A stretch of DNA of 64,000 bases from Candidatus Marinacidobacterales bacterium (GCA_965219415.1 OZ244742.1:1216001-1280000), one strand, 5' to 3'; counted from the stretch's first letter, positions 13,410 through 23,157 are shown. Made by a program: numbers and translations. Notes: a model not told the origin generated them from the letters alone.

Positions 13410-14732
13410 TTAGAGTGAAGATAGCGCGTCTTCGAGGTTGGGCTCGCCGATCTCTCGAAGCTCGTAGCGAACCCTGAGAGCAGGTTTATCCAGCTTCACC
13501 AAGTGCCGCAGATCCACCGGAGTCGCGAAGAGGACAATCTCGGCCTCCGAGGCGTCGATGGTCGCCTCCAGATCCTGGATCTGCTTCGCTCCATAGCCCA
13601 TCGCCGGCAGGGCCTCGCCCAGATGGGGGTATTTCTCGAAGGTATCGCGGAGTGTGCCGACGGCGTGCGGCCGTGGATCCACCAGCTCCGAAGCGCCCAA
13701 GCGACGGGCGGCTAGCGCAGCGGCCCCGAACGCCATCCCGCCATGCGTGATGGTGGGTCCATCTTCAATCGCCAACACTTTCTTTCCTCGAATCGTCTCT
13801 TCCTCGTCGACGGAGAGCGGCGACGACGCCTCGACCACCATCGCCTTCGGGTTGCTTGCGGCGATGTTTTGTCGCAGCGTTCGAATCCCCTCTTGGCTGG
13901 CGGAGTCCATCTTGTTGATAACTATAACCTGAGCTCTCAGTAAATTGGCCTCTCCGGGATGATACCTCAGCTCGTGCCCGGCACGATGTGGGTCGGCCAC
14001 GACGATCTCGACCGTGGGCCGGTAGAAGGGCAGGTCGTTGTTTCCCCCATCCCAGAGTAAGACGTCACACTCGGCCTCGGCTCGCCTCAAGATATCTTCG
14101 TAGTCGACCCCCGCGTATACGACAGCGCCTTCGGCCAAATGAGGCTCGTACTCCTCCCGTTCCTCGATCGTGCAATCGTGGTGGTCCAGATCTTCGAACG
14201 AAGCAAATCTCTGCAAGCGTTGTTTGACCAGGTCGCCGTACGGCATAGGGTGACGCACCACCACCACCCGCCGACCCTTCTCCACGAGAATACGGCGCAC
14301 TCTTCTAGTGGTTTGACTCTTGCCCGCGCCGGTGCGAACCGCGCAGATCGAGACCACCGGCACCTTCGCGTCGAGCATCGTGCTCCGGGCTCCTAAGAGC
14401 TTGAAGTCCGCATCCGCCGCGATGGTCGTTGAGGCTCGGTGCATGACGTGCTCGTGACTCACATCGCTGTAGGAAAATACCACCTGGTCGACGCTCAACT
14501 TGGGAATGAGTTGGGCAAGGTCGTCTTCGGAGTGAATCGAAATTCCTTGCGGGTACAGAGATCCGGCTAGCTCGGGAGGATAGCGACGGCCTTCGATGTT
14601 CGGAATCTGAGTGGCGGTAAATGCGACGACCTCATATCGGGGGTCGCTCCGATAACGAACGTTGAAATTATGGAAATCGCGTCCGGCGGCCCCCATAATG
14701 AGCACCCGGGTCTTTTTCGTTCCGCTCCCCAT
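13410..14732 (-). CDS. COG2403 P-loop NTPase (cyclic 2,3-diphosphoglycerate synthase-like; probable arginine synthetase ArcE)
   Basis: GAAGRDFHNFN, AVRTGAGKSQT, RHPMPYG, TIEEREEYEPH, WDGGNND, EDGPTITHG; stop 2 nt before the OTC start. Confidence 0.8.
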   Translation of the reverse strand: MGSGTKKTRVLIMGAAGRDFHNFNVRYRSDPRYEVVAFTATQIPNIEGRRYPPELAGSLYPQGISIHSEDDLAQLIPKLSVDQVVFSYSDVSHEHVMHRASTTIAADADFKLLGARSTMLDAKVPVVSICAVRTGAGKSQTTRRVRRILVEKGRRVVVVRHPMPYGDLVKQRLQRFASFEDLDHHDCTIEEREEYEPHLAEGAVVYAGVDYEDILRRAEAECDVLLWDGGNNDLPFYRPTVEIVVADPHRAGHELRYHPGEANLLRAQVIVINKMDSASQEGIRTLRQNIAASNPKAMVVEASSPLSVDEEETIRGKKVLAIEDGPTITHGGMAFGAAALAARRLGASELVDPRPHAVGTLRDTFEKYPHLGEALPAMGYGAKQIQDLEATIDASEAEIVLFATPVDLRHLVKLDKPALRVRYELREIGEPNLEDALSSL

Positions 14733-14931
14733 CCGCTCACTTCTTCCTTCCCGTCGGCTATGGCGAGTTTCCAAACAGCGATCGCGACCAAGCGATAGCT
14801 CTAAGCTTTTGATCGATCGTCCCGGCGAGATATAAGACAGCCGCTTCTGCTTGTCAAGGCCAGGGCGGTGGTCAGCGTTCTTCGGTTCCGCGGCGGAGGC
14901 CACCGTCGAAGAAAAGCGCGACGGTCAGATG

Positions 14932-15849
14932 TCAGGCGGCCCGAGAGAGAATTGGAATCAGCCCATCCGCCAGCGAGAAACTCGAGCTCGCGGAGCGGAA
15001 CCAACGAAGCTAGATGGTGCAGGACCTCCAGCACCTCTTGTGTTTCCTTGGCGAGATAGTAAGGGACGATCGCCCTCGAAAGAAGCTCCGCCGCCAAGAG
15101 CGACGGGCGGCCTTCATGAACACGGTGACGGTCCCCCTTCTTAAGGAGGAATACCCCCGCTAAAGGATAGGAAGAGGACGACACCACGTCACCCCTCCCC
15201 CGGCCAGGGTGTGCCGTAGGCCCGAAAAGACTCACCCTCACGGCGCAGCGCGATACGCTCATCGCTCAGTAGCTCCAATCCCTCGGCCGCCAACAATCGA
15301 GAGAGGGTAGTCTTGCCATCTCCGGAGTGCCCGGCGAATACGAACGCTTTGCCATCGATGACCGCGCCGCTGGCGTGTAGAAGCAGGCCGTTGGTGTGCG
15401 CCAGGGGGGCCAAGAACAGGAGCTGATCCAACGGGATGAGGCAGCTGAAAACCAGAACGCCCGGCCGGCTCGCTGCTCCACAGTTGACCCCAGTGCGTTT
15501 CATCGAAGACGAGCTGGTAATGCTGAAAACCTGGGTCCGCGGTCGCGTGGACCAACTGGCCACGGTAAGGATGGTAGCACTCGTAGATGGTCCGGCCTTC
15601 TTCTTTCCGTACAAGCCAGTTGAGTCCTGACTCGTAAGCCAGGGCAGCGCTGGTCCGGGGAATCGAGGCCTGCGAATCGGCGGCGATCGTGATCACCGGG
15701 GAGTCGGCGCTGGCGAAGGATCCAAACGGGCCGGGAAGCTCGAGCGGGGCCTTCATGCCCGCCCCCACCGTGATCTCGGCCGCGATCCCGGCAATCGAGA
15801 AACGGCGGTGACCGCCGGGTGGAATCGATAGGTTAGACAGCTTGGGCAA
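14932..15849 (-). pseudogene. HPr-kinase-like P-loop protein with three apparent +1 frameshifts
   Basis: LLHASG...FAGHSGDGKTTLS, LSDERI, YGTPW; removing one base at 15433-35, 15192-95 and 14978-80 gives one ~304-aa ORF. Confidence 0.75.
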
Positions 15850-15919
15850 TATATTGAGGGTTCTCAGCGTGATACCGTGACGCCGTTACAGCACGACTTC
15901 CGTCGCCCTTTGGAACGGA

Positions 15920-16099
15920 CTAGCTACCAATATCGAAGCAGGAATTGATGTTGCACGCCCTCGGCACCGATGCTCCGACCTTCATGTCACTCATCGTCTT
16001 GCATCCAGCGGCTAGACTCTCCTCGGGCTTGAGTTCGACGCGTCGGAGCTCCGGCTTGGAATAGGCTTTTCTCTGGTTGCCGTCCTGGTTCTGGTTCAT
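15920..16099 (-). CDS. Putative RiPP precursor peptide, 59 aa, 3 Cys
   Basis: MNQNQDGNQRKAYSKPELRRVELKPEESLAAGCKTMSDMKVGASVPRACNINSCFDIGS; ATG overlaps the rSAM stop (TAATG); YxxPxL leader. Confidence 0.85.
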   Translation of the reverse strand: MNQNQDGNQRKAYSKPELRRVELKPEESLAAGCKTMSDMKVGASVPRACNINSCFDIGS

Positions 16100-17259
16100 T
16101 ACCTACACCCTCCAGTCGACTGAAGCACGGGAAGCAAGACCTCACTCCCCGCTGGTTTCAAACTTCGCGTGTACTGATCGACCGGCCCATCCCAGTAGCC
16201 AAGTTTTTCGGCGCGCCGGTGGCCGACCCCGCAGCTATACTCCACGCGGGCTTCCGTATTTCCCTTTTCCATCTCCGACCAGGCAGGGCACTTGCCGCAG
16301 AGCGAGATCAGATTGCACGAATTACATTGATGATCGGCGCCCCGTATCTGCCGGTAGATGGGTGGAAACATCTCGTCCCAGATCTACCGGAAAGACCTCT
16401 CCTTCAAACTGAACTCTTTGTCGTTTCCGCGAAGCAAAATGCACATGGACATCTTCCCGTATGGGTCGATGTGAAACGTCTGACTGCCGGCACCGCAGGA
16501 GAACAAGCGACTGGAACGGAACTCCCTACGCCCCTCGTTGTAATACTGCTGGTACTCTTCCGCTCGCGACGGAATGGAAAACTCGAGGTCCACCGCTTCC
16601 TGCGGGCTGAGGCGAACGTTGCACGGTGTGAGGGAGCTGTCGAGGTTCGGATTGATCTGAGTGTCCCACTTGAAGAAAACGCCCCGACTCTCGGCGAACT
16701 GAAACATGTCCATGAACTCGTGCTGGTTGGTCTTCAACACGATGGTCTTGAGCTGCAACGGCAGGTCGCGTTCGAGGAGTAGATCCACACCGCGATAGCA
16801 TTTCTCTCTGGCACCCGGAATGCCCGTCACTTTGTCGTAGGTTTCCTCGCTGTAACCGTAGAGAGTTATCTCGATGTTGCTGGGAGGCATGTCGGCGAGT
16901 CGGTCGACGATCTTCTCGGTGAGCATGGTTCCGTTGGTGAAGAGAGTCAGCAAGAAACCCTTCCGAATCGCGTGCTCGTAGATTTCGAAGAAATCGGGAC
17001 GCATGAAGATCTCTCCCCCGGTCAGCAGAAGCCAGAGGGTTCCCGCATCGGCAATCTGATCGAGAACGTCTTTCATCTCCTCGGTGTTGAGGATCTCGGA
17101 CGGCCAGTCCCCGTCTCGGTAGCAGTGGAGGCACCTGAGGTTGCAACGTAGATCCAGTTCCAGCGACCCGGTGATGGGGACGCGATTCTGAAGCCACTTG
17201 CCGACAACATCTTTTCCGAACTGCTCCACGGGGAGGTCCGGAATCTGCGTGCATGCCAT
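16099..17259 (-). CDS. Radical SAM/SPASM peptide maturase with one in-frame TAG at 16384-16386
   Basis: CNLRCLHC (CxxxCxxC), TGGE, TNG; SPASM cysteines in CGAG, MCI, CNSCNLISLCGKC, YSC; both ORF halves share one frame. Confidence 0.88.
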
Positions 17260-17309
17260 GTGACGGTCTCCTTATTGTGTGGGACAGAATTCAGCCCACG
17301 GCCAAAGGA

Positions 17310-17324: not shown

Positions 17325-17459
17325 CGGACCTTCCATGACGCGTGTCCCTAACAGACTTTAAATCATCCAATTAGAGCCGCTTGCTTGGGTATGCCGTTCT
17401 CCAGTGTAGAGAAATCCCCCCATGCCGAGGGCACAGAGCTCCAATTTTTGGGCGAGGGG

Positions 17460-18599
17460 TCAGTTGGCCTGTCGTTCGGCAAGTGCTGCCCTGGCGCGCT
17501 CCACCAGCTCGGCGACGCGGGCCGCTGATGGGTCATTCGGAGCGAGCTTCACGAATGCATCGTACTCTCGAAGGGAATCCTCGATGCGATCCAGGTTCTC
17601 GTACGCTATCGCGAGATTGAGCCTGACGTTGGGTTGCTTGGGCTCCAGAGCCGACGACGCCTCGAGTGGAGACACCGCGTCGGCGAAACGCTGCTCGTGC
17701 ACGAATGCGGCGCCGAGCCCCGCGTGCCCGCGTGGGTCGCTCGGGTTGTCCGTCGCGATGCGCTCAAACACTTCCACCGCTTCGTCCGATCGGCTGGCGT
17801 CAATCAGAGCGGTACCCAATTCCAAGTTGGGTTCCTGGCTGGTTGGAGCCAGTTCGGCCGCGCGTTCGAGCTCGACGATCGCCAAGTCCACCTCACCATT
17901 TCGTCGGTGGATGCGGGCCAAGTCTACTCGCGCCTGCGCGTCGAAGGGTTTGTTCTCAACGAACCAATTCTGGAGCTCACCCGCTTCGGTGAGCTCATCG
18001 GTGTCCACCAGGAGACTTATCAAAGCCTTACGCGTTAGCTCGTCATTGGGCTTGACGCCGATGGCATCGCGAAGACTCGCCTTGGCTCCGCCGATGTCGC
18101 CTAACTTTTGCTTGCACAGCCCAACGAAAAGGTGACCGGTGTGATGGGAAGGCGAAGTGTGGAGCAAGTCCTCGAAGTAACCCAGCGCTTCTTCGTAGTT
18201 GCCGGCACGAAACGCTCCCTTGCCCTTGCGGGTCGCTTCCGCTGCCTCGCCAAACGCTTCCGGCTCGGCTCCCGATTCGGCGGACGCGACCAACGCGTTG
18301 TCTACCAAAGCGTCGTCTGCCAAAGCGTCGTCTACCAGAGCGTCATCCACGGAAAGCGCGTCGCTGGTGTTCGGGTCGGCGGAGGTCCCGCTGGCGAGCC
18401 ATCGGAAGCTCACTACGAGGACACCGAGGACCGCTACCATGACGATGGCTAACTTGACGGCGGCGGGGAGCCCCGCAACACCGCTTCCCCCACCGGCCTT
18501 CCTTTTAGCGCCGGTGACCCGGGGTAGTGGTTCACCACAGCGAACGCAGTCTTCGTACTTGGGTCGATTCCTGACTCCGCAGACCCGACAGATTTTCAT
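17460..18599 (-). CDS. Zinc-ribbon, TM, TPR protein (paralog A)
   Basis: CRVC...CVRC, one TM helix, multiple TPRs; ATG overlaps the pilW-like stop. Confidence 0.8.
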   Translation of the reverse strand: MKICRVCGVRNRPKYEDCVRCGEPLPRVTGAKRKAGGGSGVAGLPAAVKLAIVMVAVLGVLVVSFRWLASGTSADPNTSDALSVDDALVDDALADDALVDNALVASAESGAEPEAFGEAAEATRKGKGAFRAGNYEEALGYFEDLLHTSPSHHTGHLFVGLCKQKLGDIGGAKASLRDAIGVKPNDELTRKALISLLVDTDELTEAGELQNWFVENKPFDAQARVDLARIHRRNGEVDLAIVELERAAELAPTSQEPNLELGTALIDASRSDEAVEVFERIATDNPSDPRGHAGLGAAFVHEQRFADAVSPLEASSALEPKQPNVRLNLAIAYENLDRIEDSLREYDAFVKLAPNDPSAARVAELVERARAALAERQAN

Positions 18600-19705
18600 T
18601 AATTGTACACAGGTCCGGTTACCGAACCAGCGGTTCGAAAGGCAAGCCCGGATGCGATATTCCGCGGGTTGACGTTCGAGGAGAACGTCTTGCGGATGAA
18701 GTTCCCATCCGCGGCGGTCGCGCCTTCTGTGGACCCTTGGAGGTTCTGAGACAACGAGCGAGCCGAAACGGTGACGCGAACGCCGTTGACCATCTCGGCG
18801 GCGGTGATGTCCACGGTGACGGTAGGTTGTGGGTCGGGAGGATCATCCTGCTCGTTCGCCACGTCCGTCCCGCCGACCAGGTAGACCACCTGAAAGTCCT
18901 CGAGGTACGCCACCGGACTCCCCTGGGCGGCGAAATTCACCTCCCGCATCAAGCGGTTGGGAGGGGGACCGGATTCCACCATGCTGGGATCAGGTTCAGC
19001 GTAGTATCGGACAACCGAAATCGCAGTTACCATCGTAGGCTGGAACCCCACGGGCACCGCCACCACGTCTCGGGACTGGTACTCGGCAAGGACCGGCCCT
19101 CCTTCGTTACCGGCTGGGGGATCGGGCTCTACCGTGATATCCATCTGGCCAAGTCCGTCCGGTTGCGCGTCCCGCACGTAGCCCATGATCCAGTAACCGC
19201 TAAGAGGTAAATTGTCGTAGAGCACAACCAGATCGCCTATCTCGAGGTCGGACCAGTCGCCCGCCGTCTTGAAGGCGCAACTGGTCAAGTCTCCACCGAA
19301 AGAGGTCGGATCTACTTCGGTAGGCTCCTCCGTTTGGAACGATCCGCCGAGTGAGCCCATGATCACGATCTCATCTGGATCCGCGCCACCGTCTCCTACG
19401 TTCACATCCATAGCCGTCGTGCTAAAAGCGGGAAACTCGGGGGGAAGGCCTGCGCCGGCTTGAATTGCGTCCTTCGTCACGATATCCAGGGCGGCCCGTG
19501 CGCTCTGCTGCATATCCGCTATCTCGGGCTCCCTTTGGAAGGTAGATTGGCCACGACTCAATAGGCCGAAGACCGCGCTCATGACGATCAGCGTGATCAT
19601 CATCGAGACCATCACTTCGATGAGCGTGAATCCCGACGCCGGAGATGCGTTCCCGATCGCCCGGGCCAAAATCTTTTTTTGATGTAGCTTGCTAAACATG
19701 ACCAT
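18599..19705 (-). CDS. Minor pilin, PilW-like
   Basis: GFTLIEVMVSM prepilin motif, MQQSARAALD; start placed downstream of the sigma54-like site. Confidence 0.82.
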   Translation of the reverse strand: MVMFSKLHQKKILARAIGNASPASGFTLIEVMVSMMITLIVMSAVFGLLSRGQSTFQREPEIADMQQSARAALDIVTKDAIQAGAGLPPEFPAFSTTAMDVNVGDGGADPDEIVIMGSLGGSFQTEEPTEVDPTSFGGDLTSCAFKTAGDWSDLEIGDLVVLYDNLPLSGYWIMGYVRDAQPDGLGQMDITVEPDPPAGNEGGPVLAEYQSRDVVAVPVGFQPTMVTAISVVRYYAEPDPSMVESGPPPNRLMREVNFAAQGSPVAYLEDFQVVYLVGGTDVANEQDDPPDPQPTVTVDITAAEMVNGVRVTVSARSLSQNLQGSTEGATAADGNFIRKTFSSNVNPRNIASGLAFRTAGSVTGPVYN

Positions 19706-19827
19706 CACCCCTTCAGCAAATCCCGGCGTCCCCCGGAATGACGTCCGATCGCCATTTTGGGAAGGTACACCAAGGCGGCGAGATTCACGAAGACCGTATG
19801 GGGCTCCGGTCTCCCTCGCCAATGAAT

Positions 19828-19842
19828 GCAATTGCAAAGCCA
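19828..19842 (-). promoter_or_regulatory. Sigma54-like promoter
   Basis: TGGCTT-TGCAA-TTGC with correct GG-N10-GC spacing upstream of the pilW-like gene. Confidence 0.55.
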
Positions 19843-20027
19843 ACGTTTCCTTCATCCTTCGAGTCGGCGCCCTCTCGGTTCGCCTCTTTGGAGTCAACAA
19901 TTTGTCCCTATTCTGGGCTATTTCACCCGCAGATTTCCGTGAGAAGACCTGTAGCCACGATCCCCTCCGGACGGGGGGATTTCCCCCTCCCCGAACATAA
20001 AAGTCGACATTTTTCGCGGCGGGCCCA

Positions 20028-21479
20028 CTACTGGTCTCCCGTCAGCTCGTACTCGCGCATCTTCGTCAGCAGGGTCCTGCCGCTGACTTGAAGCTTCTCG
20101 GCCGCGTCGGATCGATTGCCGCCCGCGTCTTCGAGGACCCGCCTGATCTTCTCTTTCTCCGCGCAAGCGGCGGCCCGCCGACCGACCTCGCCCAAAGTGC
20201 CGGAAAGATCCAAATCGCTCGGAGGAGGCGGCAGCTTCTCGCTCCGGCCGAAGCCGAGGAGATCCGGCGTGAGCTCTTGGCCGTCGCACAAGATCACCGC
20301 CCGTTCCAGACAATTAGCCAGCTCGCGCACGTTCCCCGGCCAGTCGTGCGAAAGGAGTCGCTCCTTGGTCGCTTCCGGAATGCCCATCGCCGGTTTCCCC
20401 AACTCGCGACAAAATCGCTCCACGTAGTGCTGAGCGAGGAGGGGGATATCGCCACGGCGACTTCGAAGCGGCGGGATGGAGATAGGAAACACTGAGATCC
20501 GAAAGAAGAGATCATCGCGAAAGAGCTTTTCCTCGACCGCCTTTTGCAGATCGCGATTCGTTGCCGAAATGATTCGTACGTCCACCGTGAGCGTGGCCGT
20601 ACCTCCGACGCGTTCGAACGATCGCTCTTGAAGCACGCGAAGTAGCTTCGACTGAAGAGACAGCGGAAGCTCACCGATCTCGTCGAGCAGCACTGTCCCG
20701 TGGTTAGCCATTTCGAGCTTGCCCATCTTGCGACCAGTGGCGCCGGTAAAGGCGCCCTTTTCGTGACCGAACAGCTCGTTCTCCAACAGGTGCTCGGGAA
20801 TGGCGGCACAGTTGATAGCTAGAAAAGGGCCGTCCCGGCGTGGACTCAGATGATGAAGCGCCCGAGCGAAGAGCTCCTTGCCGGTACCGCTTTCTCCCAG
20901 GAGCAAGACGCTCGTATCGGTCGGTGCCGCACGTTGCAGCGCAAGACTAACCTCTTTGAGCGCCGGCCCCTCCCCGACAATTCGCGGAAACCCGTAGCGG
21001 GACGCGTACTCTTCTTTGAGAATAAGATTCTCGATAAGCAGCCGACGCTGGTCGATGGCTCGCTCCATCAAAACCAAGAGATGATCGGTATCTACCGGCT
21101 TCGAGAGGAAATCGAACGCCCCCTCCTTCATCGCGGTGACCGCATCTTCGATCGTGCCGTAGGCGGTCATGACGATCACCGGGAGATTGGTGTCGGCCTC
21201 GCGGGCGGCGCGCAGCACATCCATGCCGCTGCCTCTTGGCAGCCGCAGATCGGTGAGAACGACCGAGACGCGGGAGGAACTGAGGCACCCTCGTGCTTCC
21301 ACGGCGTCACCCGCTTCTTCGACGCTGTAGCCTTTCGACTCGAGTGTGCGCCGCAACATCGTGCGGAGCGAGATTCGGTCCTCGACCACGAGCACGTCGG
21401 CCCCACGCGGCGAAGCATCCGCCGGTGCTCGTTGGGCGCTGCCATCGGGACGTGCCCGCTGGGCCGAAGTGGTGCTCAC
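20028..21479 (-). CDS. NtrC-family sigma54-dependent response regulator
   Basis: Receiver domain, GESGTGKE, GAFTGA, WPGNVREL, C-terminal HTH. Confidence 0.94.
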   Translation of the reverse strand: MSTTSAQRARPDGSAQRAPADASPRGADVLVVEDRISLRTMLRRTLESKGYSVEEAGDAVEARGCLSSSRVSVVLTDLRLPRGSGMDVLRAAREADTNLPVIVMTAYGTIEDAVTAMKEGAFDFLSKPVDTDHLLVLMERAIDQRRLLIENLILKEEYASRYGFPRIVGEGPALKEVSLALQRAAPTDTSVLLLGESGTGKELFARALHHLSPRRDGPFLAINCAAIPEHLLENELFGHEKGAFTGATGRKMGKLEMANHGTVLLDEIGELPLSLQSKLLRVLQERSFERVGGTATLTVDVRIISATNRDLQKAVEEKLFRDDLFFRISVFPISIPPLRSRRGDIPLLAQHYVERFCRELGKPAMGIPEATKERLLSHDWPGNVRELANCLERAVILCDGQELTPDLLGFGRSEKLPPPPSDLDLSGTLGEVGRRAAACAEKEKIRRVLEDAGGNRSDAAEKLQVSGRTLLTKMREYELTGDQ

Positions 21480-22071: not shown

Positions 22072-23157
22072 TTACGAGCTCCCGCCCGACTTCTTTTGCG
22101 CCTGCCGCTCGGCTAGTGCTGACTTCGCACGCGTGAGCAACTTCTCGATCTTCGGAGCCAACGGGTCGTTGGGCGACAGCCGGACGAAGGCTTCGTACTC
22201 GGATAGGGACTCGGATATCTTGTCCAGGTTCTCGTACGCCTGAGCGAGGGCGAGGCGGAACCCGCCATTCTCCTCATCGAGACGCACCGCCTCCTGGAGA
22301 GGCTCCAGTGACTTGGAAAAGTTTCCAGCGGCGAGCTCGGTAACTCCCAGGGCGTGATGCGCCACCGCGGACTCGGGATTCGTCTCCGCCGCATTACGGA
22401 AGGCCACCGCCGCCTCTTCGACCCGGCCCGCGGTTTTCAAGCTCTCACCCAGCTCCAAGCGCGCAGACAGATTCTCCGGAGACTGCGCGAGTACTTCTTG
22501 CATCCCCAAGATGGCCTCCTCCGTTTTCCCTTCGGCTCGCATCGTCCTCGCCAGCTCGACCCTGGCAGTTTGGTCGGTCGGATTCAACTCGAGATACTGT
22601 TGGAGCACCTGTTCCGCCTGGGCGTCTTGCCCAGACCCCCGCAACATGGCCACCAAATAACGCTGAAAGCTCGGGCTCCCCGGAACGAGCTCGAAAGCAG
22701 CCTGCATGGCCTCGGTAGCTGCCTCGGGATCGCCCAAGTTGTGGTAAGCGAGCCCCAGGTACATGTGACCGAAGGGGTTATCCGGGGCTTCGTCGACGAA
22801 CCGCCCTAGGTGATCGACCGCTGCCGCATAATCTCCATTGCGAAACGCTTGCAGGCCCTCTCGCGTCGAGAGCTTTGCGAGGCCGGCGTCAAATGGGCGG
22901 CCCTCAGGAGGAGCCACGCTTGTTACGGCCGCGCTACCCCCTGCTGCCTCACGAGTCGTCGCGGGAGCCGGTCGGGGACTCATCCTCTGCCAGATGACGA
23001 AAATCGCCGCGCCTGCAAGCACGACGACCAGCAAAGGAACGAGGAATCGGAGCGGTGAGGGTTGGAAGTCATGGGCAAACTCCAACGGCTCGGAACAACG
23101 GACGCAGTACTCGAAATCGTCCTTGTTCTTGGCTCCACAATACGGGCAACGTATCAT
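22072..23157 (-). CDS. Zinc-ribbon, TM, TPR protein (paralog B)
   Basis: CPYC...CVRC, TM helix, TPRs; C-terminus clearly similar to 17460-18599. Confidence 0.8.
   Translation of the reverse strand: MIRCPYCGAKNKDDFEYCVRCSEPLEFAHDFQPSPLRFLVPLLVVVLAGAAIFVIWQRMSPRPAPATTREAAGGSAAVTSVAPPEGRPFDAGLAKLSTREGLQAFRNGDYAAAVDHLGRFVDEAPDNPFGHMYLGLAYHNLGDPEAATEAMQAAFELVPGSPSFQRYLVAMLRGSGQDAQAEQVLQQYLELNPTDQTARVELARTMRAEGKTEEAILGMQEVLAQSPENLSARLELGESLKTAGRVEEAAVAFRNAAETNPESAVAHHALGVTELAAGNFSKSLEPLQEAVRLDEENGGFRLALAQAYENLDKISESLSEYEAFVRLSPNDPLAPKIEKLLTRAKSALAERQAQKKSGGSS

Follow-up and report, generated by a model that had tools for sequence, protein, structure and literature searches.

A 59-codon open reading frame (ORF) at positions 15920..16099, on the minus strand of a 64,000-nucleotide stretch of DNA from a Candidatus Marinacidobacterales bacterium (GCA_965219415.1 OZ244742.1:1216001-1280000; this whole stretch is called the window in what follows), encodes in our reading the precursor of an undescribed family of peptides that are made ribosomally and modified post-translationally (RiPPs). 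We propose, with a probability of roughly 0.7, that the leader of this precursor is read by a PqqD-type protein, that a radical S-adenosylmethionine (rSAM)/SPASM enzyme acts on three cysteines of its core, that an HprK-like kinase phosphorylates it, and that the copy in the window has locally decayed. Comparison across genomes confirms that the ORF itself is a real and conserved gene, far beyond what chance would produce, since all 12 orthologous loci keep a small ORF, the ratio of non-synonymous to synonymous change is low, a Shine-Dalgarno-like hexamer precedes the start and the start overlaps the stop of the rSAM gene.

The peptide gene and its family

The gene reads from 16099 to 15920, with an ATG start, 59 codons and a TAG stop, and its translation is identical to the one quoted in the initial annotation of this DNA, the strand being minus. 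Its ATG (16099-16097) and the TAA of the rSAM/SPASM gene (16101-16099) share base 16099 in a TAATG junction, an overlap that the annotation had noticed and that is seen in the sequence, and a GGAGGG hexamer, read directly from the sequence at 16108..16113 (minus strand), lies 8 nt 5' of the ATG. The overlap of start and stop suggests that translation of the peptide is coupled to that of the rSAM enzyme. The translation likewise bears out the cysteine layout C33-x15-C49-x4-C54 and the C-terminal serine, Ser59, that had been described. As an account of the locus, the annotation was right about the ORF and the adjoining rSAM gene but left unmentioned an in-frame TAG in that gene, the HprK-like kinase gene downstream, the frameshifts in the kinase and the possible role of the C-terminal serine.

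The window belongs to the Acidobacteriota (Vicinamibacteria, 'Candidatus Marinacidobacterales'), and we looked at conservation within this order before turning to the phylum. Orthologs of the rSAM enzyme, with 62-93% identity, are present in 14 of the 40 relatives searched, the unpublished genome G007 included. The peptide was found at nine of the 11 loci of a first set, the two misses (G006 and G038) being loci where the contig ends right after the rSAM gene; when wider stretches from 11 relatives and the window are considered, a small ORF separates the rSAM and kinase orthologs at 12/12 loci, counts which overstate independence, coming as they do from related genomes. The annotation had made its proposal depend on conservation of the leader and the cysteines next to orthologous rSAM genes, and at these 12 loci both are kept. 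In alignment A1, which holds the order's peptides, K11, Y13, P16, L23, E26, E27, L29, C33, K34, C54, G58 and S59 are invariant, and T35 is nearly so. Between the window and its nearest relative, G001, the peptide gene shows 14.5 synonymous and 6.5 non-synonymous differences (dN/dS 0.09), and over all pairs the mean pN is 0.33 against a pS of 0.73.

The peptide divides naturally into two parts. A putative leader, residues 1-32 (16099-16004, minus strand), contains Y13-S-K-P16-E-L18 and P25-E-E-S-L, and a putative core, residues 33-59 (16003-15923, minus strand), runs from C33-K34 through C49 and C54 to G58-S59. A junction immediately before C33-K34 (A-A-G|C-K) is plausible because small residues occupy positions -3 and -1 and because a signal-peptidase-I-like protease is encoded at 12 of 15 distant loci. 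With the window peptide as query, no second copy was found in the whole genome (8.05 Mb in 3 contigs).

Beyond the order, the family turns out to be large. Searched against 1.84 billion cluster representatives, the profile of A1 retrieves 1146 proteins with E<=1e-3, of which 31 reach <=1e-10; the best 150 of the 1146 are 49-113 residues long, mostly 50-80. A word-based search gives 264 matches, unnamed or called 'hypothetical protein' and none with a Pfam domain, and one family member is labelled as coming from a Pseudomonadota metagenome-assembled genome. A broader alignment, A2 (73 sequences), matches 39 of 401 Acidobacteriota genomes, or 38 of the 370 of high quality. No NCBIfam or Pfam model matches the window peptide, a scan of 73 family members against curated families gave only scattered single chance matches (E>=0.03), and the ESM Atlas holds only unnamed Acidobacteriota clusters for it.

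These sequences share the signature YxxPxL...EE...CK-x(10-18)-C-x(4-6)-C-x3-GS, placed at the C-terminus. Among the best 150 representatives, 149 carry YxxPx[LIVMF] and 149 carry CK, exactly three cysteines are found from CK onward in 142/149, exactly five residues follow the last cysteine in 124/142, and the C-terminal residue is Ser in 140 and Thr in six; these frequencies arise partly by construction, because the representatives were picked by a profile containing the same motifs. All 119 near relatives end in GS. Across A1 and A2 the invariant columns of the leader are Y, P, L and EE and those of the core CK, C, C and GS; the stretches between the cysteines are highly variable. This is what we would look for in RiPP precursors generally: a short ORF kept beside modifying enzymes, with a conserved leader and a core that varies outside its cysteines and C-terminus.

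Modifying enzymes and the proposed pathway

The rSAM/SPASM gene at 16099..17259 (minus strand), whose reading frame is broken by the in-frame TAG, encodes CxxxCxxC at residues 39-46 and a SPASM motif with 7 cysteines. Pfam assigns the window protein a Radical_SAM domain at 79 bits and a SPASM tail; in the intact ortholog from G001 the SPASM domain scores 24.3 against a cut-off of 21.5. Nine orthologs share the SPASM motif C-x13-G-x4-C ... CX2CX5CX2C ... C, so that the orthologs possess the two auxiliary-cluster cysteine motifs that characterize the enzymes of sactipeptides and ranthipeptides, while the window copy is cut by the TAG. Because CxxxCxxC starts as early as residue 39, the enzyme has no fused N-terminal RiPP recognition element (RRE). 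Its nearest sequences with solved structures are PqqE (2e-13), BlsE and SkfB (1e-9).

Downstream of the peptide, at 14932..15849 (minus strand), lies the gene of an HprK-like peptide kinase with a TTG start and the P-loop GHSGDGKTT, which in the window falls into three frames; intact orthologs have about 300-312 residues. In alignment A3 (16 kinase sequences) H166, G181, S183, G184, G186, K187, T189, S203, D204, R206 and GTPW are invariant, position 188 is S/T and position 205 D/E. Counting from the histidine, the motif has G at +15, G at +18, G at +20, K at +21, S/T at +22, D at +38 and D/E at +39. The lasso peptide kinase motif given in the excerpted text of PMC10368454 is H148-G163-G166-G168-K169-S170-D186-D187, and the spacing in A3, H-x14-G-x2-G-x-G-K-[ST]-x15-D-[DE], is identical to it. 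An AlphaFold (AF2) model of the kinase is of high confidence, with a predicted local distance difference test score (pLDDT) of 92.8 and a predicted template modelling score (pTM) of 0.90, and Foldseek places this model near ATP-dependent phosphoenolpyruvate carboxykinase (E 2e-6) and HPr kinase/phosphorylase, HprK/P (7e-5 to 5e-4); a sequence profile of the kinase reaches HprK in the PDB at 5e-4. The NCBIfam cut-offs are nevertheless not reached: HprK_rel_A scores 36 against 200, HprK_rel_B 32 against 200 and ScmC 21 against 125 bits.

What such a kinase could do here is suggested by published lasso systems. As far as the excerpted text of PMC8498205 goes, HPr-kinase homologs of lasso clusters phosphorylate the side-chain hydroxyl of the C-terminal serine of the linear precursor, and in the part of PMC10368454 that concerns BsfK, the RRE BsfB1 greatly speeds a kinase of this type acting on a YxxPxL-bearing precursor. 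A C-terminal hydroxyl is present in 146 of the 150 best family representatives, as counted above, and Ser59 would be the most likely target in the window peptide.

We examined the surroundings of the peptide gene in 29 loci across the phylum, with 1.5 kb on each side (mostly 3 kb stretches), and in 15 wider loci. An rSAM homolog lies upstream of the peptide in 29/29 of the former and a kinase downstream in 27/29, one of the misses being a contig end; the 15 wider loci have the rSAM gene in 15 cases and the kinase in 14. Taking the order and phylum sets together, the position of the peptide between rSAM/SPASM enzyme and kinase is kept over 41 loci. At the wider loci a PqqD-family protein of about 100 residues is encoded in 13/15, and an S24/S26 peptidase of about 140 residues, encoded after the kinase, in 12/15; the best NCBIfam match of this peptidase is signal peptidase I, whose cut-off of 51.85 it just passes in one locus (52.5 bits) and misses in the other. 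Thus the usual cassette of the phylum consists of PqqD, rSAM/SPASM enzyme, peptide, HprK-like kinase and signal-peptidase-I-like protease. The reading of YxxPxL as a leader motif of the RRE-binding type, made in the initial annotation, gains indirect support from the presence of a PqqD/RRE gene in these 13 distant cassettes, from its near-universal occurrence among the representatives (149/150) and from a published lasso system that, in the excerpted text of PMC10368454, pairs YxxPxL, an RRE and an HprK-like kinase. Less regular neighbours are NTP_transf_5 proteins (3-4 of the 15 loci, once fused to the S24 peptidase), a PorU-like C25 peptidase (6/15), a Wza-like exporter (4/15) and Bac_transf (one locus). 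The C25 peptidase regions belong to giant proteins of 1200-1700 residues that precede the cassette, upstream of PqqD, at these six distant loci (L067, L071, L075 and L076 among them), and L076 adds a subtilisin-like region.

In the window's order the cassette has just rSAM enzyme, peptide and kinase, flanked by a pilin-like or TPR gene and by ornithine carbamoyltransferase (OTCase). A candidate for the missing PqqD lies elsewhere. The genome has three PqqD-domain matches, all on a contig other than the window's; two belong to other HprK-like/PqqD systems, and the third, located at C3:1815693-1815929, matches a profile of cassette-type PqqDs with 68.7 bits. Orthologs of this unlinked protein, 97-99 residues long, are found in 16 of 40 relatives: 12 relatives have both cassette and unlinked PqqD, two have the cassette only (G007, 83% complete, and G020) and four the PqqD only, while the sister family f3 has neither in any of 16 genomes. 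This co-occurrence is suggestive that the unlinked PqqD serves the cassette of the order. No rSAM, kinase or peptide gene was found within about 8 kb of the unlinked PqqD, and its conserved upstream neighbours match no Pfam family. Cassette PqqDs have lasso PqqD chaperones among their NCBIfam matches, all below cut-off. A complex prediction for the unlinked PqqD (A4) with the peptide (A1) scored 0.45 against 0.35 for a control, which weighs neither way. The same genome contains related arrangements that are distinct from the one studied here. At C3:3659201-3662401 there is a second, different cassette with an S24/S26-like peptidase ORF, an HprK-like kinase (356-aa frame), a PqqD-domain ORF and an rSAM enzyme with 25% identity to that of the window, its SPASM part lying in another frame. 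At C3:385615-388806 an HprK-like protein (323-aa frame) adjoins a PqqD-domain protein with a Cys-rich C-terminal tail (about 10 Cys in 50 residues), which could combine a precursor and the domain that recognizes it in one chain; the 402-aa ORF that follows may be a nucleotidyltransferase.

How might these parts work together? We expect that the leader, the approximately 32 N-terminal residues with Y-x-x-P-x-L and L-x-P/A-E-E, would serve as the handle for a PqqD-type RRE, encoded within the cassette in most lineages and at the unlinked locus in the window's order. The rSAM/SPASM enzyme would then act on the three invariant cysteines of the core of about 27 residues, sulfur-to-carbon thioether crosslinks, as in sactipeptides and ranthipeptides, being the most likely outcome. 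The HprK-like kinase would phosphorylate a hydroxyl of the linear precursor, most likely that of Ser59, by analogy with phosphorylated lasso peptides. The signal-peptidase-I-like protease would, in most lineages, cleave off the leader close to the small residues that precede C33-K34, and in some lineages a nucleotidyltransferase may go on to decorate the phosphate.

Several observations weigh against this proposal. The mechanism is proposed from genes, sequence comparison and a kinase model, and the type of rSAM chemistry is assigned from the invariant cysteines and the enzyme class. Moreover, the rSAM enzyme reaches the cut-off of no curated NCBIfam maturase family (AlbA, StsB, PapB, ScmE/F and others), and its best NCBIfam scores are to the heme-related AhbD and NirJ (in bits against cut-off: AhbD 123/500, MftC 98/265, StsB 92/625, PqqE 80/381, PapB 45/340). 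In the excerpted text of PMC10368454, BsfK targets Ser3 of the core and not the C-terminal serine, accepting Thr and rejecting Tyr, a precedent which, together with the near-invariance of T35, speaks against Ser59 as the site. In the stretches examined, PqqD and the S24 peptidase are absent from the cassette at all 12 loci of the window's order, and so is an exporter. The co-occurrence of cassette and unlinked PqqD is limited in force because related genomes are not independent, neighbours were called crudely from raw ORFs, and the motif frequencies are partly circular. Finally, nothing may be made in this organism, where the local rSAM enzyme and kinase are broken.

The flanks of the cassette deserve a brief description. 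A terminator-like hairpin at 17417..17438 (minus strand), found by a consensus scan, lies between a zinc-ribbon/TPR gene (stop at 17460) and the start of the rSAM gene, and suggests that rSAM enzyme, peptide and kinase are transcribed as a unit of their own; the scan, which used the consensus only, found 5 sites where 2.5 were expected in the region. On the other side, between kinase and OTCase, an ORF of 497 aa that contains a P-loop-like region and matches no Pfam family occupies 13410-14903 (minus strand); it occurs only in the window and, as three pieces, in G001, and in other relatives OTCase directly follows the kinase. Two paralogous zinc-ribbon and TPR proteins with 30% identity, at 17460-18599 and 22072-23157 (both minus strand), flank a pilin-like gene with a prepilin N-methylation motif (18599-19900) and a sigma-54-type response regulator (20028-21479), and this block is syntenic across the order.

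Decay of the local copy and rival explanations

The rSAM gene of the window carries the nonsense codon TAG at 16384..16386 (minus strand), in place of Gln292, which is CAG in G001; it lies between the second and third SPASM cysteines and removes 5 of the 7. The kinase, compared with that of G001, has three +1 insertions in short homopolymers, near 15433, 15192 and 14978. To these is added a shortened unlinked PqqD, 79 residues long against 99 in G001, which ends beside a transposase gene on the opposite strand; this gene, of the Mutator family (IS256-like) and encoding 437 residues, lies directly against the truncated end (C3:1815693-1817300).

We compared the region 14800-17300 with contigs from four public runs of four studies (X1, X2, X6 and X12). 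X1 and X2 match the window at every position, the three kinase insertions included, and it may derive from either. X6 covers the whole region with a few substitutions and lacks exactly the three inserted bases, so its kinase is intact; X12 has no coverage at the three insertion sites, and positions 16384-16386 are covered by X6 and by record 8 of X12. The TAG is unchanged in all four runs, and since no run differs there we take it to be a real, shared allele. We rejected the idea that it is read as a sense codon, as the peptide gene itself ends in TAG and G001 has CAG at this site. The kinase frameshifts are either a haplotype or a platform artefact common to the two studies behind X1 and X2, whose library types are unrecorded. 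In G022 the rSAM gene shows an independent Gln to TAG change, as well as the loss of a conserved cysteine to arginine. Housekeeping genes are split in a number of relatives, namely OTCase in G014 (L017) and G012 (L024) and the pilin-like gene and 497-aa ORF in G001 (L014), with L023 (G010) also listed; many of the relatives with such split genes are assembled into very few contigs, so that assembly indel errors are common in this set, and a lone frameshift in one of these genomes should not be taken for decay.

Given the nonsense codon in the rSAM gene, the kinase frameshifts and the truncated unlinked PqqD, beside a peptide ORF that is whole, the pathway of the sequenced genome is probably no longer working. 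That the unlinked PqqD is damaged together with the rSAM enzyme and the kinase also hints at its being part of the pathway. We may thus ask whether the local ORF is simply the relic of a dead cluster within a family that is otherwise real, an explanation that is compatible with what we propose for the family and that we hold to be rather probable. It is favoured by the TAG, present in every run and read as a stop, by the three kinase insertions shared by the window, X1 and X2, by the PqqD shortened next to a transposase gene and by the parallel damage in G022. Against it, the reading frame of the peptide is undamaged and non-synonymous changes in it are not in excess, although this measure spans the whole divergence from G001, and X6 carries an intact kinase; an ATG four codons past the TAG could moreover allow the rSAM enzyme to persist as a split rSAM and SPASM pair, and an indel error specific to a platform common to X1 and X2 is possible.

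Other explanations concern what the family is. The YxxPxL leader, the matches of partner PqqDs to lasso PqqD chaperone models, below cut-off as they are, and the HprK-like kinase with a C-terminal serine, as in paeninodin-type clusters, could all be expected of a lasso peptide precursor with its cyclase and leader-peptidase genes at other loci, and a core starting at G32 would put Asp at position 7 in the window peptide. Yet A1 shows no conserved acidic residue at core positions 7-9 and lacks Thr at -2, unlike lasso precursors; no Asn-synthase-like or transglutaminase-like neighbour recurs in the 15 wide loci, and it is the rSAM/SPASM gene that adjoins instead at each of the 29. The annotation had seen neither a lasso layout nor a cyclase, and this extends to the whole genome, where a single Asn_synthase match lies at C1:784398-785546, about 430 kb from the window, and no Transglut_core3 match exceeds its cut-off. 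We therefore consider a lasso peptide the least probable of the alternatives. Nearly as improbable is a small Cys-rich protein that stays unmodified, for example as a metal binder or regulator, and whose gene just happens to sit between those of two enzymes: three invariant cysteines and a conserved lysine would suit it, and the evidence for modification of the peptide is indirect, but it would leave without explanation the strict position between the two enzyme genes at 41 loci, the leader-like conserved N-terminal half with its RRE motif and PqqD partner, and the overlapping start and stop codons, which suggest translational coupling to the rSAM gene. More serious, if still unlikely, is the idea that the product of the ORF matures not into a secreted antibiotic but into a cofactor derived from the peptide, or into a peptide linked to the cell surface or to exopolysaccharide, for which the rSAM enzyme would build a crosslinked head group and a C-terminal phosphoserine would be the transfer handle, for instance for glycosylation by a nucleotidyltransferase. 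The minimal three-gene cassette of the order, without exporter or immunity gene and lying amid housekeeping genes, with OTCase and a pilin-like gene in conserved synteny, fits this idea, as do the NTP_transf_5, Wza-like, Bac_transf and PorU-like C25 neighbours at some distant loci and the distant likeness of the rSAM enzyme to PqqE and MftC; moreover, a nucleotidyltransferase of lasso clusters adds hexoses to phosphoserine, according to the excerpted text of PMC8498205. On the other hand, the accessory genes are found at fewer than half of the loci and may simply lie nearby, the segments between the cysteines of the core vary greatly, as is typical of diversifying natural products rather than of a cofactor, and no redox enzyme recurs as a partner in the 15 wider loci.

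Thus we return to a modified RiPP precursor as the preferred reading of the family. A bolder version of it, which we offer tentatively and at odds clearly short of even, is that the cassettes define a new RiPP class, present in about one tenth of the sampled Acidobacteriota genomes and represented by more than a thousand sequence clusters from metagenomes, in which the leader, RRE and kinase of lasso type are joined to an rSAM/SPASM enzyme that replaces the cyclase, and whose products are thioether-bridged and phosphorylated at the C-terminus. In some lineages the phosphate could then be a handle for glycosylation or for an exported polysaccharide, an idea prompted by the NTP_transf_5, Wza-like, sugar-transferase and PorU-like neighbours.

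Relation to known systems

We found no literature joining an HPr-kinase homolog with an rSAM RiPP or describing the cassette, in a search outside of which lay subscription journals and supplements; among the matches found, those on HPr kinase together with PqqD are all on lasso peptides, and PMC10288494 contains no mention of kinase, HPr, Acidobacteria or phospho. If our proposal is correct, a large family of unnamed 'hypothetical' proteins would gain a testable definition, namely a YxxPxL leader and a CK...C...C...GS-COOH core beside an rSAM/SPASM enzyme and an HprK-like kinase. It would also imply that RiPP modules recombine, the recognition and kinase module of lasso type working with radical-SAM chemistry, and that C-terminal phosphorylation of peptides reaches beyond lasso peptides. 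For the Acidobacteriota, a hard-to-culture phylum with largely unknown natural products, it would provide a defined natural-product target, and the local copy would serve as a natural case of pathway decay.

The cassette proteins belong to no curated rSAM maturase, PqqD or HprK-related family, but several known systems come close in different respects. Like the phosphorylated lasso systems (paeninodin PadeA/K, ThcoK, SyanK, pseudomycoidin PsmK/N and BsfA/B1/K), the cassette combines a YxxPxL leader, a PqqD-type RRE, the kinase motif and a terminal serine, with an NTP_transf_5 nucleotidyltransferase at some loci; unlike them, it has no lasso cyclase, B2 peptidase or conserved macrolactam acceptor but an rSAM/SPASM enzyme and three invariant cysteines instead, and its kinase scores only about 35 bits on HprK_rel_A/B, whose cut-off is 200. 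With sactipeptides and ranthipeptides (AlbA, SkfB, StsB, PapB, CteB) it shares a 7-Cys SPASM rSAM enzyme beside a short Cys-containing precursor, and the enzyme matches SkfB (1e-9), StsB and AlbA; it differs from them in an rSAM enzyme below all curated cut-offs and without a fused N-terminal RRE, in a dedicated kinase, in the C-terminal serine and in the lasso-like leader.

Two model-defined systems offer a further parallel. SynChlorMet comprises an HprK-like ScmC, a PqqD (ScmD) and the rSAM/SPASM enzymes ScmE/F, and GeoRSP a PqqD with an rSAM/SPASM enzyme; the cassette proteins match both weakly, and the kinase recalls the HprK_rel_A/B families, but the scores fall far short of the cut-offs (ScmC 21/125, ScmE 60/400, GeoRSP rSAM 56/400 and ScmD about 31/100 bits). 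To our knowledge neither system has an experimentally defined product, and searches for their names gave no literature match, swamped as they were by the unrelated acronym SCMC. Pyrroloquinoline quinone (PQQ) and mycofactocin biosynthesis (PqqA/D/E and MftA/B/C) likewise pair a small precursor with a PqqD-type chaperone and an rSAM/SPASM enzyme, PqqE being the top match of solved structure (2e-13) and MftC reaching 98 bits, yet PqqE at 80 against 381 and MftC against 265 stay well below cut-off, the core is Cys-based and highly variable, without Glu/Tyr or a Val-Tyr end, and a kinase is present. Our best reading would therefore be that the cassette is a cross of two logics, that of phosphorylated lasso peptides, which would have supplied leader, RRE, kinase and terminal serine, and that of sactipeptides and ranthipeptides, which would have supplied the rSAM/SPASM enzyme and the cysteines.

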